A stretch of DNA of 28,520 nt, from the IMG/VR virus record IMGVR_UViG_3300024228_000018, positions 1 to 28,520 of that record; one strand, given 5' to 3'. Both the position numbers and the translations under genes were made by a program. This DNA comes from a virus (Duplodnaviria; Caudoviricetes). How positions within the stretch are numbered: the stretch's first letter is position 1; each line of letters opens with the position of its first letter. The notes beneath the pieces were generated by a model that saw nothing but the letters and a program-made list of their open reading frames with translations, was not told the origin of the DNA and ran no database searches. Below, one piece after another: positions 1,587 through 11,604 of the stretch.

Positions 1587-1728
1587 GTACTTTTGACCAT
1601 TTAGATATAGTGTAACCTATAGTTACTACTAATAATATTATTTTTAACCAATCTTCTATTTGCGTAAAAGTTGTAACCCCTAGTGTACTGCCGTTTATGG
1701 CGTATAACTTAATTTCCTGTAGACTCAT
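1570..1728 (-). CDS. 52-aa small membrane protein, putative holin (not in ORF track)
   Basis: Manual translation MSLQEIKLYAINGSTLGVTTFTQIEDWLKIILLVVTIGYTISKWSKVREEDK*. Hydrophobic segment WLKIILLVVTIGYTI and a charged tail. ATGA overlap with the upstream gene; its end overlaps the amidase start. Confidence 0.7.
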   Translation of the reverse strand: MSLQEIKLYAINGSTLGVTTFTQIEDWLKIILLVVTIGYTISKWSKVREEDK

Positions 1729-1964
1729 TTCTTTTTTTTATATTTGCTTACGCGCCCTTTTTGATTTTTTTCTTTTTGAGCAGCAGCTTTTTCTGCGGCG
1801 GTTAACTCGCTCCAAGTTGACGGTGTATCTTTGCTTATTTTCTTAGTTGGTCTAAATGTATTTTCTCCATCACTGTAATCTTCTTTACCGCTTGGGGTTT
1901 CCCATTCCTCTTCAAACCAACGCCTGAGACTTTTAAACGGAGATGGTTTCATTTTAAATGCCAT
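1725..1964 (-). CDS. 79-aa basic hypothetical protein (LRRWFEEEW...RPTKKIS motif); probable start at 1964 rather than 2159
   Basis: ATG (MAFKMKPSPF) lies 1 nt after the stop of the 76-aa gene. The longer track ORF would overlap that gene by about 190 nt. Confidence 0.75.
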   Translation of the reverse strand: MAFKMKPSPFKSLRRWFEEEWETPSGKEDYSDGENTFRPTKKISKDTPSTWSELTAAEKAAAQKEKNQKGRVSKYKKKK

Positions 1965-1965
1965 G

Positions 1966-2196
1966 CTACTTAGATTTATTTCCCCAGTTAGCAGCGCCAA
2001 CTTTTCTACATTTAACCAAAGCACCACTCGCATAAGCTGATGGCCATTTCTTATACCTGCTTTTAACTTTACTATAGCAAGCGTCTTTTTTTGTAGCTGG
2101 CGAAGACGGTGTGCAATTGCAATTCTTTCCTTTGCATTTGTTGCAGTAAGTTGTAGCACCTACTTTACTTGTTTTTGCTGTGATTGGTTTGCTCAT
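1966..2196 (-). CDS. 76-aa basic Cys-containing hypothetical protein (WPSAYASGALVKCRK motif, recalled as DUF5872-like)
   Basis: Packed tightly between neighbours (1-nt gaps). Contains YCNKCKGKNCNC and KKDACYSKVKSRYKKWPSAYASGALVKCRK. The family name is from memory and unverified. Confidence 0.75.
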   Translation of the reverse strand: MSKPITAKTSKVGATTYCNKCKGKNCNCTPSSPATKKDACYSKVKSRYKKWPSAYASGALVKCRKVGAANWGNKSK

Positions 2197-2197
2197 A

Positions 2198-5100
2198 TTA
2201 ATTTCTTTTTTTCCATTTAGAACCAGATGTTCCTCTTTTTTTCCATTTAGTTGTTCCTCCGAATTTACTTTTAGATTCCTTCTTTTGTACTAAGCCTAAA
2301 TCCCATTGACTATAACCTAATAGTAATGCAACTTTTTGCCAGTATTTTGTATCATCGCTAAAAACAACCCTTAAGTTATCTAGTTTTCTAACAACCCTAT
2401 CTACTGGTATATTAGTAAAAGCAGAGATAGATTGACCTACTGCATAGTAAGCAGGGTTGTCTAATCCAAATCCTTTCATTTTTTCTCTAGTAGTTTTATA
2501 ACTAAAAGCTCTACCTGTGCTAAGTACTTTTCTTATTTTAGAATCTACCGGCGGTGATATACTAAGCATTCTTAAACCAGCTTGCGTATAATCAGGTCTG
2601 TCTTTATTTGATTGCTTATTAATTTCAAATAATATATTTTTTATAGTAGAAGCAATAGCTCCGTAAACACCTGTACCTCTAAGCAAAGAATCTAACATGG
2701 AATTAGCAGCTCTTAATTGCTTATCTTCAATCATTTCTTCGTCATCATCTTCAAATAAAGCAGCAAACATTGCTGATTGCAAAGATGAGAAGATCATATT
2801 CTGCACTGTAGTGTAATATATTATTTTAGTTATATTAGTCTTATAGTCCCCTCGGCCATTTTTAAGATCTAAAACAGCCTTCTTAGTTAATCTCATGTAT
2901 TGCATAGGGGTGTTTGCAAAAGCCAGTATAATACGCCCTAATGGACTAGCTTGTTGTTGAGATACTCTATCCGGTCTGGATGACTGCTGTGTTTCTTCTG
3001 CTATCTCTTGAAAATCTAAAAAAGCTTTTTCTTTTGCAGAAGCCTCTGACATACCGTCTTCTTTGTACTTATTTATTCTATTTCTAATAAACGATGCTCC
3101 CCCCATTGCTATAGCGAAACTATCCGCTATTTGAGTAGGTAAGAAACCTGCTTTAAGTATTGCGCTGAGAGCGGCTTTATATTTATTAGTAGCCGTCTCC
3201 GCTGCTCTTGCAATGTCATCTGCGTTTACGTCATTTTTTAAACCAGACCTTCTCTGCTTTAAGAAATCAGAGTTGAACAGCATACTAAAGTCTTTCCAAA
3301 ATTGATCTTGATCTGCAAAAGCCTCTGCTGCAGCTATAGGGTTGTTATCACCCCAGTTTACAAAGTTTACAATAGATAATGTTTGTAATAAAGCTGATCT
3401 AGTATTAAAGAACATTATAGTACCCACAGAGTCATTTACCCAATTCATAAAGTTATTAGTAAGCTTGTTTGCTCCTATAGGTCTATTTCGACCTGTCTTC
3501 ATTCTGTAAAGTATATCCTCAAGAGCTTCAGTGTAGTTTTCACCAAATTGTAACCTCAGCTTATTCATGTTGTCCTTAGAGAATACTACATCTGCGTTTT
3601 GCTGCCAAGCTTCTAAAAACTCAGCCCTCTTAGTTGTGTTTATCATACCTATGGCATCAGTGGTAATAGTACCAGAATACCAATTACTAGTAGGTTCAGG
3701 ATAGCCACCTAATGTAGCCTGTATTTGTTTCGCAAATCTTAGCAACTCAGGATTACCCTGTACAACTTTTATTAAGTCGCTTCTTTCTTGTTTTGATAAA
3801 CCAGGTATTGCATGACCATTCTTAGCCCACAATATAACCCTTAACGCCATTTCATTTGTAAATCCGGTGGAGTTTGTTTTCTCTAAACCAGATGGGACAT
3901 CTTTAAAGCTTTTAATAAGTTCTTTAACTATCCCCGTCGCGTTCTCTTTATATGATTCAAAATCTCTATAACCTTTAGCATAAGGATCTAGTAATGCTTT
4001 CTTAAACCAAGCAGCGTGAGCGTCTCCTTTTTTTCCTTCCCCCATTAAAGGGTACAATAGCCCAACAAAATCCTCAGCTGAGTAAGGTACAAAAAACTTA
4101 AACTTATCTTTTGTTTTACCTATAACTTTACTTGCGGCTTCAAAGATTTTAGTGTTAGCTCCTATTCCAGTAACATCTTCTATTATTTTGTTAAAGTCTT
4201 TATTTATATTTTTAGAGAATTGAACCTTTGCCTGATGCACTTTGGATTTTACGTCGGCCTCTTCAAGAACCCCTTGCACCGCTTTAACATTTTTATAAGC
4301 GTCATCTGCAAAATAGAAATCGTTATATCCTTCAGCTACTTTATCAATAACCCATTGTGCTTTCGCTAAAGCTGTGCCATCGCCTAGTCCAACTATATTC
4401 TCTAATTTAATATCTAAGCCAATACCTTTTAAAAACTCGTGTATAGCATATTTTGAATTCGCTGGTCGAGCGGTTAAAATGTACACGTTGCTGTTACCAA
4501 ACTTTTTATTACGAGCCATTGCTTTGTCGAACATAGGGCCTTTAGCCCCCTGCATAACCTTACTAAATTCGCTAAAATCAAAGGAAGCACCTTTAGCTGT
4601 TAACTGATCTGCCTGCAAAGCAAACTCAGTGGCATTTATTTTTCCTTTTGTGCCATCTGGCAATGTATATAAAACATTACTTTTAGTTGTAGCCAATGTG
4701 TCATCAAAGTCCCAAACGCTAATACCTTTTTGAGTAGCATCAGGTCTATTAACCATAGCTTTAGCTTTGTTAAGAGTTTTGCTAAATTGCAACAATTTAT
4801 GCTTTTTCATCTCAGCTCTAACTTCTGCTTGCTGAGCAGGTGTTAAATACTTATACGTTCTTTGAAATCCTTGTTTGTTTTTGAATGCTTTAGTTTTGCC
4901 AAACAAAGACATAGTAACCACATCAGCCATATCAAATGGATCCCAGTTATATTTTGTTTTAGAAAACTGTATTATTTTTTTAGTTTCCAAAAAATCTTTA
5001 ACGCGCTGGTCGGTGTATCTTTCTTTACCTCTCCATCCCTTTTCCTTTTGAACTTTTCTTAAAAGCGCATCGAATTCCCTAGACACTAAGTTTACTTTAG

Positions 5101-8100
5101 CACCTTCCAGAAAGTTAATTAGTTCTGGTCTTTCTATTTTTCCATCGACAAAATCTTTCCATGCTTTAAACACCTCAACAGCTTCGGTTTCATGCTCAAG
5201 TATAGAGTCTTTAACCGATAGCCCCTCCATCGCAAATCCTGCTGAGTTCATTTTTCTTATAACTCCTCTTTGATCTGCACTTATTAAAGAAAGAAAACCT
5301 ACAAAAGAATCTCCATTCTTATTGTATATAGCTTTTTGAGCCTCATTAAGTAGCCACTCTCTAACCTCTGTAGCTTCTTCGTTTATAGTTTTAACATTGT
5401 TAATGAAGTCTGCTTTTATGTTAGTTACGTCAGCTAAACCTTGTAGCCTTACCCCATCTTTAAGGATATAAGACCTGTTTTTTTCTGTATCTACTTCTTT
5501 GGTAAATCCATATTTTTCAGGGTCGCCTAATACTGGCTTCAGTATTTTATCGTACACTTGCTCATTTCTTGTTATGCCATCAAGCTTAAGTGTTCTTATA
5601 GATCTGCTTATGTACCTTAAAAAAAGCTCTGCAACCTCCGCTTTCGCTTTGGTTCCCTTTACATTATTGAATGAAGATTTAAAGTTTGTTAAGGAATAAT
5701 CAAACCCAATAACTTTTTGTTGGTACTTATATACTTTTTGATGTTCGTTTATAGCGCTTATTAAAAACTTAACAGTATCTGTGTAATTTAGCTTGTTTGC
5801 TAATAGCTTTAATAATTCTGCTCTATATGTTCTAACGCTGTTCTTGTTTAAAGTATCATTGCCAGCATTCCATACAAGCTCTGCTAGACCTTTAAAATCT
5901 TTTACTTTATCAAGACCCTTTATGATATCTTCAACCACCTTTGTTTTAAAGTCGTTGTTAGAAGGTTTTTCTAATAAAGGATTTAAAGCTTTAGATATGT
6001 TTTGTTTTTGTTCGACAGTAACAGTTTTAGAAAATTGTATAATATCAAAGCCTGTTTTTTCGCCTTTGTATCTATCAAGTTGACTTTGAAGATCATTTAA
6101 TTGAGATTCTATTATAATACCCGCCTGAACGTCTAAAGAAGTATCAGGAGCTAACTCTTGTATTGATTTTAATTGGCCTAAGTTTTCCGCAGTTGCATAG
6201 TCGGCAACAATTTGCTTAGCTAATGGCTCAAGTATCTCTCTAAATAATTGCTTTTGTCTTTCTAATACCGCAGACTTTTTCCCCTTTACAAAATAAGTTA
6301 AAAAGGTTTTCTTATCGATTGGTTTGATTCTAAAAACAGGATTACCCTCTGCTGTTAATTCTCTACCAACTTTCTCAGTAGGGAATAACTTACCGTAGCT
6401 CTTCTTAATGCTTTTAATTGGTAAAGCTTTAGTTACTATGTCAAATGTATTCGGATCGTTTAGAAAGTCTATATAAGCTCCTGGGATGACTGCGTTGGGG
6501 TATACGCCCGTAATGGCCCCTGTTTTTTTCATTAGCTTTTTAAACAATTGTTTGTTAACATAGTTTTCAAGCCAAGAAACAATATAAGTATCTCTTCCTT
6601 TTTTAACCGATATAGTTTCAGATAGAGTACCTTTCTGCACTCTCACTCTTATTTCTTTTTCTAAGTCAGATTTAATGTCATCTATTAAATCCTGATCTAC
6701 TATGTCTAGCTCATTAAACGTACGCTGACCCCTTTCTACATTACCACTTCTATCTATGGACTGAGTATCTTTAGTAGCGACAACACCTTTAGCATCATCT
6801 AAATTAGATGTAAATTCAGTGTTAGCCTCCTTAAACATTAAAGACTGTCTAGTTTGCACTATCTTTTTTACATAACCAGCTAAATCTTTGTTTTTAGCAG
6901 GGTTGTATGTACGGATAGCAGCAATTACTTCTGCCCTTAGTATAGCCAAAGCATCTTGAAACTCTAAAGCCTCAGGCGCAAATTGTTTAAACTTTTGTTG
7001 AACAATAGTATTGATATAGCCCTCAAACATTGGTACTAATTTACGTTCCACTGGAGCAGGTAAAGGTTTACTAGCTGTGTATTCTTTTCTTTCAATACCA
7101 TACATGCCTACATTGTACTGGTCCATTATTTTTTGGGATAACGGATCTCTAGGCCCTAAGTCTGTTGTTCTTGTTGGTTTATCAGGTCTTTCTTTTTTAA
7201 CTTTTGGCTTAGCTTTTGGCTTTGGGGGAGTTTTAACAACAGCTTGTGGGTTTGCCGCAGCTTCCTCTGCAGCGTCTAATGCTGCCTCAGCTGCTTCTAA
7301 GTTAGCTTCAAATCTAGGATCGTTTGGGTCTGCGTTTTGTGCATTTTCATAATCAAGCTCAGCCTCCTCTACGGTTTTAGAAAATTCAATTCCATCTTGT
7401 AACCCAGCATCGCTTAAGTCAACATCTTTAAGAGCTGCTGCTGCTTTTGATGTTAATTTACCTTGTTCGGCACTTTGGTCAAACTCTTTAATGAAATTGT
7501 ATACATCTTTACCGGATTCAAAACCTATATTGGTATAACCTACAGGTTTAAAAACACCCACTACAGCATCACCTATTTTTTCAAATGTTGTCTTATCGTA
7601 GTTAATTTGTTTTTTACGAAGCGCATCAGAAAATACATTAACATATTCTGTATTATATGCTTTTCCCGTATATCCCCTCTCTTTCATTTTAGCGTCAACA
7701 AAATTCCTTTGAGAAGAGGTCATCGATTTTCTAAATTGACGAACCATTTTACCTTGCTCTTTTACGCCACCAATAAGCTTATTAAGTACTGGGTGTAGTA
7801 CCTCGTGCATTCCTGCATTAATAGAACCTGTTTTTCTAGCTATATCTTTATCTATAACTATCTTGTTACCAATAGCAAAAGCAGATACATCAAATCCTTT
7901 GTCTTTGTTATCAAAGTAAGTTTTTCTAGTTTCCTCACTTACTTTATCGCTATTCATTAAAGACTCAACCTCAGCTGTTGTAAAAACATCCATTTCTAAG
8001 CCTTTTTCTTTAGCTATAGTTTTTGCGGAGGCTATATTTTGCTCAAGGTTCATGTCAATAAGTTGCTGACGCGCCCCATCATATTCAGATTTAAAACCCT

Positions 8101-9601
8101 CCATAGCTGAAGCGTATTGGCTTTCGCTAATTTCGTTACTTCTAAATTGCTTATTAAGCTCCGTTGTTTTAAACGCAGCAGCATCCGCTAAGTCAGTTAA
8201 GCTTTCAATTTTACTGATCTGCTTATCATCTAAGCTATTGTATATATCATTGCCTTTTCTAACTGAGTCCGCAATTTCAGATTCTTTTTCATTAATCTGT
8301 GCCTGAATACCTTCTTTAACTAATTTATTATCGGTAGTATTAAACTTTTTTCTAAGTAAGGATAATTCATTTATATTTTTATCTATTTTATCGCCGTCAA
8401 CTACTGTTCTTATAGTGTTCATGGATTTTGCAGAATAACTACCTGCAACCATTCCTCCACCACCAATAAATCCTTGAAGTCCCGCTTCTAAACCTTCTTG
8501 GCTAGTAACAGCATCTATAACTGTTTTAAACACTTCTGCTTCGTTGTCTGTGCCAGCGACCCTACCGTATTCTACGTTAACCTTGTCGGCGGCATGCTGT
8601 AATATTTCTGTAGTAAACTCAGTAGCTCCTGTTGAAAACATCCTCATGGTGTTTCTAGCTCCTTTATTATATATTAGTTTTTGAGCAAGATATTTGCTAC
8701 CCATACCAATTAATCCCGAGGATCCTGTTCCTTTTACGGCTCCTTTAGCTCCTTTGGCAACCGCTCCTAACCCAATAAACTCTAATCCGGTAGAAATAAC
8801 CCCCATGCCTACGGGTATTGCATTGTCTGCTTCTCCTGATTGTACGAGTTCATCAAAGCTAACGCCTAGGTTTTCAGCTTTTAACTTATTGTACTCTACA
8901 AAGTTTTCAGCTGTATAATCCATAAAAAACCCAGTACCTAACGTACCTGCTCCGTAAATAACACTACCTATCATAGAGGTTAAAGCATTCACTCCTCCCG
9001 CAAGAGCGCCGCTTACATCTCCTTTTTTTACGCTTTCAATTATGCCAAGGGTGTCTTTGCTTTCAAGTTGTTCTTTCTTATATTTCTCAATAGATTCTAA
9101 AGTGTTTTTAGTTCCAAGACCTTGAGCCGCCCAAGAATCTTTACCCTGCTTTTTAACATATTCATCTACTTTGTCTTGCCCGAATATTCCAGCGTATACA
9201 GTATTAGTAGCTATGTCTAAAGATGCTCTTGCACCCCCACCTTCTTCTTCGTTTGTATCAAACCAAAATTCAAAGACATCCCCAACCTGTTCACCTACAT
9301 TGGAGAAAGAATTTTTAATTGATTGCCAAGCCGATAAAGGTTTTTCCGATTGTGATCCCGTAGCGTTTTGGCTTGACTCCACAGCTGGATCCGCACTTGC
9401 AGAGTCGTTTGTCTTTACTGGTTCTGCTGTATTAAAAAACTGAGAAGTAAAATCGTTCATAGACTTAGTGTAACTTCCTGATTCTTTTAAAGCACCGTAT
9501 AGTTTTTCTTGACCTTCTAGGCTTCCAAATTGTGATTGAAAGTCCGAAAAAGATTTAGTGTATTGCCCGCTAGCCTGTAGCGCCTCGAATAGTTTTTCCA
9601 T
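2198..9601 (-). CDS. 2467-aa large internal virion/ejection protein, polyvalent (zincin, sigma70-r2-like and HAD phosphatase modules)
   Basis: Last and largest of three genes after the tail module. Gly/Ala-rich hydrophobic helices at about aa 200-390, HEVLH at aa 599-603, sigma-r2-like segment at aa 851-924, DFDDT/LTAR/K/FADD HAD motifs from aa 1631, and five [QE]FSK[TN] linkers. Confidence 0.85.
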   Translation of the reverse strand: MEKLFEALQASGQYTKSFSDFQSQFGSLEGQEKLYGALKESGSYTKSMNDFTSQFFNTAEPVKTNDSASADPAVESSQNATGSQSEKPLSAWQSIKNSFSNVGEQVGDVFEFWFDTNEEEGGGARASLDIATNTVYAGIFGQDKVDEYVKKQGKDSWAAQGLGTKNTLESIEKYKKEQLESKDTLGIIESVKKGDVSGALAGGVNALTSMIGSVIYGAGTLGTGFFMDYTAENFVEYNKLKAENLGVSFDELVQSGEADNAIPVGMGVISTGLEFIGLGAVAKGAKGAVKGTGSSGLIGMGSKYLAQKLIYNKGARNTMRMFSTGATEFTTEILQHAADKVNVEYGRVAGTDNEAEVFKTVIDAVTSQEGLEAGLQGFIGGGGMVAGSYSAKSMNTIRTVVDGDKIDKNINELSLLRKKFNTTDNKLVKEGIQAQINEKESEIADSVRKGNDIYNSLDDKQISKIESLTDLADAAAFKTTELNKQFRSNEISESQYASAMEGFKSEYDGARQQLIDMNLEQNIASAKTIAKEKGLEMDVFTTAEVESLMNSDKVSEETRKTYFDNKDKGFDVSAFAIGNKIVIDKDIARKTGSINAGMHEVLHPVLNKLIGGVKEQGKMVRQFRKSMTSSQRNFVDAKMKERGYTGKAYNTEYVNVFSDALRKKQINYDKTTFEKIGDAVVGVFKPVGYTNIGFESGKDVYNFIKEFDQSAEQGKLTSKAAAALKDVDLSDAGLQDGIEFSKTVEEAELDYENAQNADPNDPRFEANLEAAEAALDAAEEAAANPQAVVKTPPKPKAKPKVKKERPDKPTRTTDLGPRDPLSQKIMDQYNVGMYGIERKEYTASKPLPAPVERKLVPMFEGYINTIVQQKFKQFAPEALEFQDALAILRAEVIAAIRTYNPAKNKDLAGYVKKIVQTRQSLMFKEANTEFTSNLDDAKGVVATKDTQSIDRSGNVERGQRTFNELDIVDQDLIDDIKSDLEKEIRVRVQKGTLSETISVKKGRDTYIVSWLENYVNKQLFKKLMKKTGAITGVYPNAVIPGAYIDFLNDPNTFDIVTKALPIKSIKKSYGKLFPTEKVGRELTAEGNPVFRIKPIDKKTFLTYFVKGKKSAVLERQKQLFREILEPLAKQIVADYATAENLGQLKSIQELAPDTSLDVQAGIIIESQLNDLQSQLDRYKGEKTGFDIIQFSKTVTVEQKQNISKALNPLLEKPSNNDFKTKVVEDIIKGLDKVKDFKGLAELVWNAGNDTLNKNSVRTYRAELLKLLANKLNYTDTVKFLISAINEHQKVYKYQQKVIGFDYSLTNFKSSFNNVKGTKAKAEVAELFLRYISRSIRTLKLDGITRNEQVYDKILKPVLGDPEKYGFTKEVDTEKNRSYILKDGVRLQGLADVTNIKADFINNVKTINEEATEVREWLLNEAQKAIYNKNGDSFVGFLSLISADQRGVIRKMNSAGFAMEGLSVKDSILEHETEAVEVFKAWKDFVDGKIERPELINFLEGAKVNLVSREFDALLRKVQKEKGWRGKERYTDQRVKDFLETKKIIQFSKTKYNWDPFDMADVVTMSLFGKTKAFKNKQGFQRTYKYLTPAQQAEVRAEMKKHKLLQFSKTLNKAKAMVNRPDATQKGISVWDFDDTLATTKSNVLYTLPDGTKGKINATEFALQADQLTAKGASFDFSEFSKVMQGAKGPMFDKAMARNKKFGNSNVYILTARPANSKYAIHEFLKGIGLDIKLENIVGLGDGTALAKAQWVIDKVAEGYNDFYFADDAYKNVKAVQGVLEEADVKSKVHQAKVQFSKNINKDFNKIIEDVTGIGANTKIFEAASKVIGKTKDKFKFFVPYSAEDFVGLLYPLMGEGKKGDAHAAWFKKALLDPYAKGYRDFESYKENATGIVKELIKSFKDVPSGLEKTNSTGFTNEMALRVILWAKNGHAIPGLSKQERSDLIKVVQGNPELLRFAKQIQATLGGYPEPTSNWYSGTITTDAIGMINTTKRAEFLEAWQQNADVVFSKDNMNKLRLQFGENYTEALEDILYRMKTGRNRPIGANKLTNNFMNWVNDSVGTIMFFNTRSALLQTLSIVNFVNWGDNNPIAAAEAFADQDQFWKDFSMLFNSDFLKQRRSGLKNDVNADDIARAAETATNKYKAALSAILKAGFLPTQIADSFAIAMGGASFIRNRINKYKEDGMSEASAKEKAFLDFQEIAEETQQSSRPDRVSQQQASPLGRIILAFANTPMQYMRLTKKAVLDLKNGRGDYKTNITKIIYYTTVQNMIFSSLQSAMFAALFEDDDEEMIEDKQLRAANSMLDSLLRGTGVYGAIASTIKNILFEINKQSNKDRPDYTQAGLRMLSISPPVDSKIRKVLSTGRAFSYKTTREKMKGFGLDNPAYYAVGQSISAFTNIPVDRVVRKLDNLRVVFSDDTKYWQKVALLLGYSQWDLGLVQKKESKSKFGGTTKWKKRGTSGSKWKKRN

Positions 9602-9605
9602 TTAA

Positions 9606-10961
9606 TTAAAGATTATCTAATGATCCAGAATTTGTATTGTTCCCAGACGGGTAATTATTTATAAAGTGGTTTTCTGCTTTACCACCAAAATCTGAGTTTT
9701 GTATATAAAACCTATAAATAGATTGAGGGTCGTTTACATCTACAGATATACCTCTAGAATAAGAGGGGTTGCTGTAATTGTACCTAAACAGTTCAGAGTT
9801 ACCATACATGTCTGCAAACTCTTTACGGGCCTCTTCACTGTCCTTAATCTCCTGCCCAGTTATAAACTCTTGGTAAAATTCAGCTCTACTTTTGTATTTT
9901 ATATTTTTATCAGTGGGATCCATAGAGTTGGCTGTTCTAGCTATAGCTGTCGCATCGCCAGAAGTCGTTTGAGATAACTGCAAAGCTTCTTGTGCTCTAG
10001 GCCCTCCTAGATTAATTTCGTCGCGTACTGCTCCGCTGTATCCGCCACCACCTCTTCTGCTGGCTGGTCTTTTATCATTTGCCCCTTGTATAGAGGATTC
10101 TGTAAAAGCGTTCATGTAACTATTAAGAACAGCATCTTTTAGTAAAGCTTCATTCTCTGGTTCAAACAAAGACGGGTCTTCTAAATTCAATCCACCTTGA
10201 ACAACAAAGTCATCTGATGCCAACGATAATAAACTATTTCTACCACCTTTATCTATAAGTTGACTAACCTGCTGGCGTACCATGTTTTTTCTAGCACCTT
10301 GTAAAACTTTTCCTGAATTATATACGTTTTCGTTTATCTTCATTATACTGTCAGCAGCCCCAAAGTCTTTTAAGAACGGTTTCTTTGTTTGTCTATAAGA
10401 TTTAAACTCTCCGTTTTCTTCGTTCCAAAAGTTTATACCACCACCTTGACCAATGCTCATTGTGCTTTCGCCCGTGTATATACCTGAAGCATCGCTTAAC
10501 GTTCCTATCTTGTTGCCTTCAGACAATGTACCATTATCAAAATCTTTAACATAATTTAGCTTGTCTTCTTTAAAAGCATTTAGCTCTGACGCTAGGTTGG
10601 TAAAGTTAGATTTAATACTATTCAACTGGCTAACTCCTTCCATGTACATAGGGTTATCCGCATCAAGTTTGGCTACTCTCATAGCCGTATCCGCATATAT
10701 TCTTTTTTGTTCTACTAAGTAATTTTTTACTGAGCTTTGCTGAGTAGGAGTTAATTGAGTAACATCAAACTCTGAATTTAAAGTGTCTATGTAGTTTGCA
10801 ACCTTGTTATTTATTTGAGCTTTTTTTGCTTGCCTTACAGCCCTGCTTTGAGCCCCTGCTGCTAAACTGTTGTTTAACCCCTCTTGAAAAGCTTGTCCCC
10901 AGGTTGATTGTTTACTTGCTCCTACAAGAGCAGCTCCATCAATTAATGATTTATTTGCCAT
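9606..10961 (-). CDS. 451-aa probable internal virion/ejection protein
   Basis: Long ORF between the 209-aa and 2467-aa genes. Helical, Cys-free, with an Ala/Gly/Gln-rich N-terminus. Function inferred from position only. Confidence 0.6.
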   Translation of the reverse strand: MANKSLIDGAALVGASKQSTWGQAFQEGLNNSLAAGAQSRAVRQAKKAQINNKVANYIDTLNSEFDVTQLTPTQQSSVKNYLVEQKRIYADTAMRVAKLDADNPMYMEGVSQLNSIKSNFTNLASELNAFKEDKLNYVKDFDNGTLSEGNKIGTLSDASGIYTGESTMSIGQGGGINFWNEENGEFKSYRQTKKPFLKDFGAADSIMKINENVYNSGKVLQGARKNMVRQQVSQLIDKGGRNSLLSLASDDFVVQGGLNLEDPSLFEPENEALLKDAVLNSYMNAFTESSIQGANDKRPASRRGGGGYSGAVRDEINLGGPRAQEALQLSQTTSGDATAIARTANSMDPTDKNIKYKSRAEFYQEFITGQEIKDSEEARKEFADMYGNSELFRYNYSNPSYSRGISVDVNDPQSIYRFYIQNSDFGGKAENHFINNYPSGNNTNSGSLDNL

Positions 10962-10974
10962 AATTTATATTTTA

Positions 10975-11604
10975 TTAGGAATTCAAGATATCCCCTAAAG
11001 GAGTACCTTGCATACTTGGCATACCACCAATTATTCCCGCAGCGCCTCCTACCACACCGCCTATTCCGCCTACTATTGCGTTTGTTGCGTCTTGCCTAGC
11101 CTTGTTTGCCGCGCCTAGTCTTTGCTGAGACATGCCCAATAATGTAGATTGTTTTTCATTTTCTGCATCTCTTGATATTAATTCTCCTTTCTTTTCGTAT
11201 AACTGTAAGTTAGCTGCTTGTTGTCGCTCAGCCATTTGATTAGATTGCTCTTGCCTCCCTATATCCATAGAAGCTTGTCTTACTTGCTGACTTTGTTGTC
11301 CAGCTAAGGACTGAGCTAATGCAGCAATACCAGAACCACCCGCGGCCCCTTGAAGATTACCCATTATGTTAACTAGTCCTTGATTAGCTTGTTCTGCTTG
11401 AAATTGAGCCTGTTCTTGATTCACGGTTAGATCTTCCATCGTGTTTTGCATATTTGTATATACATTTGAAGTGTCTTGCATTTCAAATTTAGCTTTGTTT
11501 CTATTAAACTCAGCTTGGGCTGCTCTTTGTTCTTCTTTTCTTTTTTTAGAACCGATGATACCACTGGCTATACCAGTTAATCCTCCTACTATTTGTCCTA
11601 CCAT
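10975..11604 (-). CDS. 209-aa probable ejection/DNA pilot-like protein
   Basis: Gly-rich hydrophobic ends (MVGQIVGGLTGIASGIIG; AIVGGIGGVVGGAAGIIGG) around a Gln/Ala coiled-coil core. This matches the architecture of the smallest podovirus ejection proteins (T7 gp14/P22 gp7 type) by analogy. Confidence 0.7.
   Translation of the reverse strand: MVGQIVGGLTGIASGIIGSKKRKEEQRAAQAEFNRNKAKFEMQDTSNVYTNMQNTMEDLTVNQEQAQFQAEQANQGLVNIMGNLQGAAGGSGIAALAQSLAGQQSQQVRQASMDIGRQEQSNQMAERQQAANLQLYEKKGELISRDAENEKQSTLLGMSQQRLGAANKARQDATNAIVGGIGGVVGGAAGIIGGMPSMQGTPLGDILNS

Follow-up and report, generated by a model that had tools for sequence, protein, structure and literature searches.

A peptide repeated at the module junctions of a giant phage protein is a candidate processing site for the protein's own predicted zincin

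Passages of Iyer 2017 (PMC5512222) describe phage polyvalent proteins with a zincin-like metallopeptidase (MPTase) and propose that the MPTase processes the protein itself. Here we analyse a giant protein of this type, 2467 amino acids (aa) long, encoded in a 28,520-nucleotide (nt) stretch of an uncultured marine virus of the Caudoviricetes (IMG/VR record IMGVR_UViG_3300024228_000018, positions 1 to 28,520; hereafter the window), in which a short peptide of the form Q-F-S-K recurs at the boundaries of exchangeable modules. As in the polyvalent proteins, a large phage polypeptide joins disparate domains (zincin, HAD, sigma-2-like, EH) in a variable architecture, an HEXXH sequence is followed by a downstream Glu, homologues carry an ART-PolyVal-like module, and the gene lies with virion genes. 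The giant protein differs from them in that it contains no catalogued LPD or other polyvalent Pfam domain, and in that a motif of defined sequence sits at its joints and follows the zincin. The word 'linker' is absent from the main text of Iyer 2017, whose sections covered here, external alignments aside, name no junction or cleavage motif; nor do the covered passages of the phi14:2 preprint (bioRxiv 2020.03.07.982082), the phi24B preprint and PMC9503650. Our literature searches, outside which most subscription papers fell, found no publication on a junction motif in these proteins and nothing on their processing. The polyvalent class and the idea of self-processing are already published (Iyer 2017); what the present case adds is a candidate junction motif and a controlled breakpoint test.

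Three other groups of phage proteins invite comparison. The crassvirus cargo proteins, among them phi14:2 gp65-67, share with this locus a muzzle-like tail gene, cargo genes and a zincin in the relevant passages of PMC10172136 and bioRxiv 2020.03.07.982082, the latter of which suggests polyprotein cleavage for the gp65-67 zincin/RNA polymerase set. They differ from the giant protein, which has a swappable effector cassette with a repeated junction peptide and no RNA polymerase: Pfam, PHROGs and NCBIfam gave no RNA polymerase match to it, and it lacks a DFDxD sequence, the only similar string being the DFDDT of its HAD domain. Coliphage N4 vRNAP, as described in passages of PMC13434306, is likewise a giant ejection protein of modular build with hydrophobic segments at approximately aa 200-280 and an internal HExxH, but it is an uncut chain and a polymerase, and those passages mention no repeated junction motif. 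The giants encoded at the same gene position in cultured flavobacterial phages (Elemovirus gp18, Gundel_1 gp74, phi38:1 gp101, phi19:3 gp129) include two with HExxH, namely Elemovirus gp18, which aligns with our zincin in hhalign (65%, E = 6e-5), and Gundel_1 gp74, for which a comparison of the two zincins gave no support (1.3%). They differ in that QFSK is repeated in none of the six checked and that three of the six lack HExxH. These three, from Panino, phi38:1 and phi19:3 (L015:31744-37233, L019:12423-17498 and L020:15376-20991), are also the shortest, with 1691-1871 aa compared to 2482-3859 aa in the three with HExxH. A search for repeated motifs in the six cultured or GenBank giants gave nothing convincing, and no close homologue of the giant protein was found in cultured phages.

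The initial annotation of the window had listed five copies of [IVL]-[QE]-F-S-K-[TN] in the giant protein. All five were found at the places given, with their Phe residues at F740, F1190, F1546, F1606 and F1795 (codons beginning at nt 7384, 6034, 4966, 4786 and 4219), and the codon differences noted between copies proved correct on a codon check. We refer to these sites as junctions J1 to J5 (Table 1). Two further FSK tripeptides, which bring the total in the protein to seven, lie at F1679 inside the HAD domain and at F2007 inside the C-terminal core; they are off-pattern and act as internal negative controls. The motif pattern, which was defined post hoc, has 5 copies compared with a maximum of one in 20,000 sequence shuffles, and some 4-mer reaches 4 copies in 53 of 2,000 shuffles of the giant protein. 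The signal in the single sequence is modest, and it is the comparison of homologues that decides.

Homologues were collected as 120 of 132 proteins found via the zincin region plus 63 loci, giving 184 sequences that collapse to 72 after dereplication. A two-state segmentation of the 71 pairwise alignments with the dereplicated homologues yielded 301 breakpoints, 202 of them within aa 700-1850. No fewer than 89 of these 202 fall within 5 aa of the five motifs (for the individual junctions see Table 1), compared to a mean of 9.4 under random placement, and 89 was reached in none of 20,000 trials; the homologues being related, the breakpoint counts are not independent. Only 15% of positions have at least 4 breakpoints nearby, which is true of all five motifs. 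F1679 and F2007 have 0 breakpoints each within 5 aa, which rules them out as junctions, and F1679 is in addition an invariant HAD residue. In five close pairs the DNA identity shifts within approximately 2 codons of the motif at J2, J3, J4 and J5. When the cassettes are cut at the motif, the 66 full-length homologues display 41 architecture strings, an upper figure as the pattern-based cuts split or merge some modules. A fixed N-terminal region, zincin and C-terminal core thus surround a variable cassette with crossovers at the motif, the units exchanged being the sigma-2-like one, the EH or PD-(D/E)xK-like slot, the HAD, the ART and the 60-aa one. Both the placement of the motifs at module boundaries and the swapping of modules between motif sites, as originally suggested, are borne out by these breakpoints, architectures and DNA crossovers. 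The expectation that homologues would show constant ends and variable modules always bounded by the motif held in part: the ends are constant and modules vary at the motifs, but some breakpoints have no motif.

The strict FSK form describes the giant protein, but the family form is wider and reads hydrophobic-Q-x-S-(K/R/other). Read by anchoring on the junctions, it consists of a hydrophobic residue, Q, then F or less often A, L, T or P, and S, followed mostly by K and also by R, L, Q, N or I. At J2 the residues through Ser belong to the upstream module, while those after it vary with the next module. A pattern based on the observed variants has 231 matches within 65,390 aa of cassette, compared to 23 within the 89,778 aa outside it (66 proteins); the strict motif occurs 35 times in 51,746 aa of giants and not once in 83,009 aa of neighbouring open reading frames (ORFs). 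The conservation is at the protein level, as had been proposed: 41 motif sites in 28 loci are encoded by 16 different DNA words with both families of Ser codons (TCN in 21, AGY in 20), which rules out the motif as a DNA recombination site.

The ART-PolyVal-like module provides a separate view of what the motif marks. Where this module lies inside the HAD domain or inside module 1, the flanking motif is absent (8 of 8 cases), whereas elsewhere the module ends in the motif in 8 of 9 cases, which indicates that the motif marks separable units and not insertion as such. The spacing from J5 to the C-terminal core differs by more than 10 residues among homologues, and tandem motif doublets 10-25 aa apart occur in P0079, P0013, L062, P0022, P0063, L024, P0047 and P0025, both as expected for linkers. 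The doublets also resemble the scars of insertions and deletions, and together with the DNA crossovers within approximately 2 codons of the motif they would fit a motif that is left over from micro-homologous recombination during module insertion, was copied to every joint and has no function at the protein level; copying would likewise yield motifs that change in step. We regard such a relic as very improbable, since synonymous sites vary freely (TCN and AGY Ser) while the residues stay, the motif persists across zincins that are less than 60% identical, and no motif accompanies the ART modules inserted at folded or linker positions.

The predicted zincin is recognized by its residues; neither Pfam nor the PDB gave a sequence match to the region. 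In the polyvalent proteins of Iyer 2017 the zincin fold consists of a three-stranded sheet with helices on its flanks. The assignment of E600 as the catalytic Glu in the initial annotation is correct, the sequence HEVLH occupying aa 599-603, and H599, E600, H603 and E652 are invariant in 23 of 23 aligned sequences. A profile search with the zincin retrieved 955 representatives, of which 150 were used, and HExxH is present in all long relatives among the matches listed. In one distant clade the junctions read hydrophobic-K-F-S-K. Among 145 proteins, 89 have at least two Q/K sites, and in 78 of these 89 the residue is uniform across the junctions (59 Q, 19 K), compared to a shuffle mean of 43. 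We also compared junctions in 69 zincins less than 60% identical, with the sites picked blind to the Q/K residue and with a permutation that ignores the tree. J2 and J5 carry the identical residue in the Q/K position in 27 of 52 proteins, where permutation gives 13.4; for J1 and J5 the figures are 16 of 34 and 7.8, and for J1 and J2 they are 14 of 41 and 6.7. D-type (P0159, P0201) and L-type (P0255) variants of the motif also recur at several joints, these examples having been picked after the fact.

The Q/K switch can be compared with the trees of the different parts of the protein. With FastTree (114 labelled of 140 rows), the Q/K label changes 2 times on the zincin tree, 8 times on the C-core tree and 12 times on the tree of the N-terminal region. 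For J5 alone, which is separated from the zincin by more than 1,000 aa and flanked by the HAD domain and the C-core, the label changes 2 times on the zincin tree (2-3 in 12 bootstraps), 6 times (4-7) on the HAD tree, 4 times (4-5) on the C-core tree and 7 times (6-8) on the N-terminal tree; 48 of 52 rows entered these trees, four being dropped as unparsed or neither Q nor K. An IQ-TREE HAD tree has 4 label changes at J5 and rejects a K clade (p-AU 3e-8). The Q/K switch of the motif fits the zincin tree better than the C-core, N-terminal or HAD trees, with few independent events, and this is a first sign that the motif follows the zincin and not the domains that flank it. A Pro after the second His is found in 85 of 89 Q-type and in 0 of 28 K-type proteins, and was considered as a specificity residue; since L033, P0140 and P0173 have Q without the Pro, it marks a lineage and no more.

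The same trees bear on whether a different enzyme cuts the motif. A phage head-maturation or host protease could do so while the zincin targets host proteins or peptidoglycan; passages of Iyer 2017 (PMC5512222) allow for MPTases as effectors, those of the phi24B and phi14:2 papers suggest peptidoglycan digestion by such domains, and the window covers 28.5 kb of the genome, so a further protease could be encoded. Two findings make a foreign protease improbable in our view: of the four parts of the protein, the zincin is the one whose tree best fits the motif residue, and the scaffold, capsid and portal proteins of the window carry no motif.

A motif that is bound and left uncut deserves more weight, although we still consider it unlikely. 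It would act as a tag for docking, threading or packaging and keep beads-on-a-string domains spaced on their way through the tail, with the zincin fold possibly serving as a clamp. Such a tag accounts equally well for the location at junctions, the constraint at the protein level and the change in step. Passages of PMC13434306 propose that N4 vRNAP is ejected as beads on a string, still linked, and according to passages of PMC7213743 ArdC is functional without its catalytic Glu. On the other side, the general-base Glu and all three candidate zinc ligands of the giant protein's family are invariant, and the absence of the motif from the 83,009 aa of neighbouring ORFs extends to other virion genes (the chance expectation is also low). 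Two short, apparently free-standing HAD homologues (P0295 and P0316, genomic context not seen) moreover end without the motif.

We consider it likely, on balance, that the motif is a recognition site cut by the protein's own predicted zincin after the protein, as predicted virion cargo, has entered the host. That the motif is read by this zincin is supported indirectly, through the comparisons above. Several observations weigh against this self-cleavage. Within module 1, 25 of the 202 breakpoints lie at aa 930-959 and 7 more in the aa 1050s, with no motif at either place, and several relatives are without a clear motif at one or more joints. Among the multi-site proteins 11 of 89 score as mixed, P0253 and P0156 being mixed cases, and the residue after Ser does not covary significantly among the 69 zincins. 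On the zincin tree, where the Q/K split comes close to a single event, the pair test has only 2 independent pairs and is not significant; it is significant only on the C-core (p = 0.03) and N-terminal (p = 0.008) trees. A similar tree signal could come from the linkage of zincin and cassette, or from a reader that the same lineage encodes elsewhere. Among the 150 of 955 relatives used, none with a dead zincin was found. Precedents in partly covered sources point the same way: N4 vRNAP, HExxH domain included, was solved as a single chain spanning residues 1007-3500 (PMC13434306), and the ArdC variant E229A retained function, no proteolysis of HhaI was seen and the catalytic Glu was dispensable for conjugation (PMC7213743).

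If the zincin does cut at the motif, the giant protein would be packaged intact and leave the virion together with the two smaller cargo proteins encoded upstream. The zincin would refold in the host cytoplasm and cut each junction motif, with the Q-F and S-K bonds as candidate scissile bonds; the separate early effectors so released would be the sigma-2-like unit, the EH module, the 60-aa unit and the HAD phosphatase. Recombination at the motif would give viable new cassettes because every separable unit ends in it. These results lead us to speculate, more tentatively, about a self-cutting effector cassette in which each lineage's zincin might read its own four-to-five-residue tag and the ends of incoming modules might be rewritten to the resident code. 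The tags might then be Q-F-S-K here and K-F-S-K, D-F-S and L-L-S variants elsewhere, an assignment we offer with the same reserve. If true, the protein would be the phage analogue of a viral polyprotein, with parts that can be plugged in and cut sites that can be predicted. The motif would explain how the cassette is reshuffled without breaking its carrier, and would provide a rule for dividing unannotated giants into separate candidate early effectors. The five exact candidate sites, the two negative controls (F1679 and F2007) and the pair of Q-type and K-type zincins are such that a single expression experiment would suffice as a test.

Table 1. Positions in the window of the giant gene, the parts of its product and the two preceding cargo genes
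Feature	Position (nt)	Strand	Basis or remarks
Giant 2467-aa polyvalent-type protein	2198..9601	-	ORF; closes the morphogenesis cluster as the third gene of the predicted cargo triplet
Constant N-terminal region, aa 1-510	8072..9601	-	Homologue comparison
Zincin-like metallopeptidase core, aa 561-715	7457..7921	-	H599-E600-x-x-H603 (nt 7807-7793), candidate third ligand E652
Junction J1, IEFSKT, aa 738-743	7373..7390	-	23 breakpoints within 5 aa; J1 sequence variants across homologues
Module 1, aa 744-1187	6041..7372	-	Pro/Lys-rich linker, sigma-70 region-2-like part (approximately aa 870-915) and 250-aa domain without known family
Junction J2, IQFSKT, aa 1188-1193	6023..6040	-	21 breakpoints within 5 aa; DNA identity falls directly after the motif
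Module 2, aa 1194-1543	4973..6022	-	Conserved L-E1469-H1470; present in 11 of 72 dereplicated homologues
Junction J3, IQFSKT, aa 1544-1549	4955..4972	-	5 breakpoints within 5 aa
Module 3, small optional unit, aa 1550-1603	4793..4954	-	In 6 of 72 homologues; no known family
Junction J4, LQFSKT, aa 1604-1609	4775..4792	-	15 breakpoints within 5 aa
Module 4, HAD-type phosphatase, aa 1610-1792	4226..4774	-	D1631-x-D1633, T1710, K1747, D1766-D1767; in 30 of 72 homologues
Junction J5, VQFSKN, aa 1793-1798	4208..4225	-	25 breakpoints within 5 aa
Constant C-terminal core, aa 1799-2467	2198..4207	-	In 66 of 72 homologues; distant similarity to gp74 of Tenacibaculum phage Gundel_1, in the C-terminal part of gp74
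451-aa gene, second of the predicted cargo triplet	9606..10961	-	Position only
209-aa gene, first of the predicted cargo triplet	10975..11604	-	Position and weak matches

Whole-protein scans of the giant protein against Pfam and PHROGs gave nothing useful, and PDB profile searches returned only a weak sigma hit. For the sigma-like module of the initial annotation four sources agree, but all are below the cut-off: in the sigma-70 region-2-like part of module 1 the best values are E = 0.21 in Pfam, E = 0.039 for a PDB sigma factor and E = 0.006 for SigK, and in an Atlas search 11 of 30 hits are sigma-like, at a sub-threshold 0.93. At the motif-free breakpoint cluster of aa 930-958 (6727-6812, minus strand), many homologues keep the rest of module 1 but have a replaced or strongly divergent N-terminal part. 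The EH module likewise stands by its conserved E1469-H1470 but matches no database entry. It may be a His-Me-finger-like nuclease, whose active-site pattern is EHxxP followed by a beta strand and D/N. The EH and a later strand with Asp recur across modules related to module 2, and an Atlas search at 0.83 provides a lead only. The module that replaces module 2 in relatives may be PD-(D/E)xK-like, by sequence pattern and not by a database match. The slot after J2 (window 4973-6022; L023:11888-12883) alternates between the EH type and the PD-(D/E)xK-like type, as if it were a nuclease slot occupied by unrelated folds.

The residues of the HAD phosphatase in module 4 are invariant in 22 of 22 sequences, and a 97% identical copy matches phrog_415 with E = 5.5e-6; the match to Pfam HAD reaches E = 0.17 only, and no PDB sequence match was found. 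All four HAD motifs, I-IV (DxD, T/S, K, DD), are kept. The HAD domain accepts insertions of whole domains shortly after its first motif, without a junction peptide. An ART-PolyVal-like domain lies inside it in six proteins (L035, L076, L052 (P0022), P0031, P0125 and P0129), and in P0218 an AAA_33/zeta-type kinase is inserted at aa 1737-1879, giving a kinase-phosphatase fusion. The ART-PolyVal-like assignment was made on homologue L029 (E = 2e-6; 29 bits compared to a cut-off of 31.2), and P0062, P0049 and P0039 carry a second copy of the C-terminal core's first helix ahead of the inserted ART. An optional module in relatives matches phrog_6387 and is GNAT-like in its sequence pattern. Among hits that might represent modules encoded on their own (120 short ones to HAD, 4 to module 2), most appear to be fragments.

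The window contains a cluster of phage morphogenesis genes: those for terminase, portal and virion structural proteins, and one that is muzzle-like (PF25729, E = 1.6e-4, below the cut-off). The terminase, portal and structural genes share their strand with the giant gene, which lies downstream of them. In five of six related records the cluster ends in a gene of approximately 200 aa, one of approximately 450-550 aa and a giant gene, and a giant likewise closes the sixth. For the 209-aa protein there are weak matches to Gundel gp72 (E = 8e-4) and Elemovirus gp20 (E = 0.005), which their records annotate as virion structural proteins. The C-core matches Gundel_1 gp74 with E = 2e-7 (over aa 2177-2320) and 1e-10 in two comparisons; all these E-values are against six or seven proteins only. 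The 451-aa protein has no sequence match to its cultured equivalents. The giant protein is predicted to be virion cargo from its gene position and from the crassvirus and N4 precedent in passages of PMC10172136 and PMC13434306; the synteny supports this indirectly, the 'structural' labels being record annotations. Its N-terminal region contains Gly/Ala-rich hydrophobic segments at aa 197-215 and 264-282 (hydropathy 1.3-1.6), which possibly act as a membrane anchor.

The 480-aa structural protein of the window matches 85 GenBank phage records, and its best matches, 44-50% identical, are to an uncultured spring phage, Maribacter phage Panino and Elemovirus. From these matches we take a flavobacterium to be the probable host. 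The stretch is no assembly artefact, as two public seawater runs, one of which is possibly the source of the window, have contigs that cover it at 0-1 differing letters per piece. Some contigs among the public runs come from RNA libraries, which is no indication of transcription. No joints at the motifs were seen in four public runs, two of them raw-read runs with 1 and 3 reads only. At window 1725-2196 (minus strand) a DUF5872 domain is split over two overlapping ORFs in different frames, of which 1966-2196 matches profile positions 11-40 and 1725-2159 matches 55-111; by these profile matches the split is a frameshift, either natural or from assembly.

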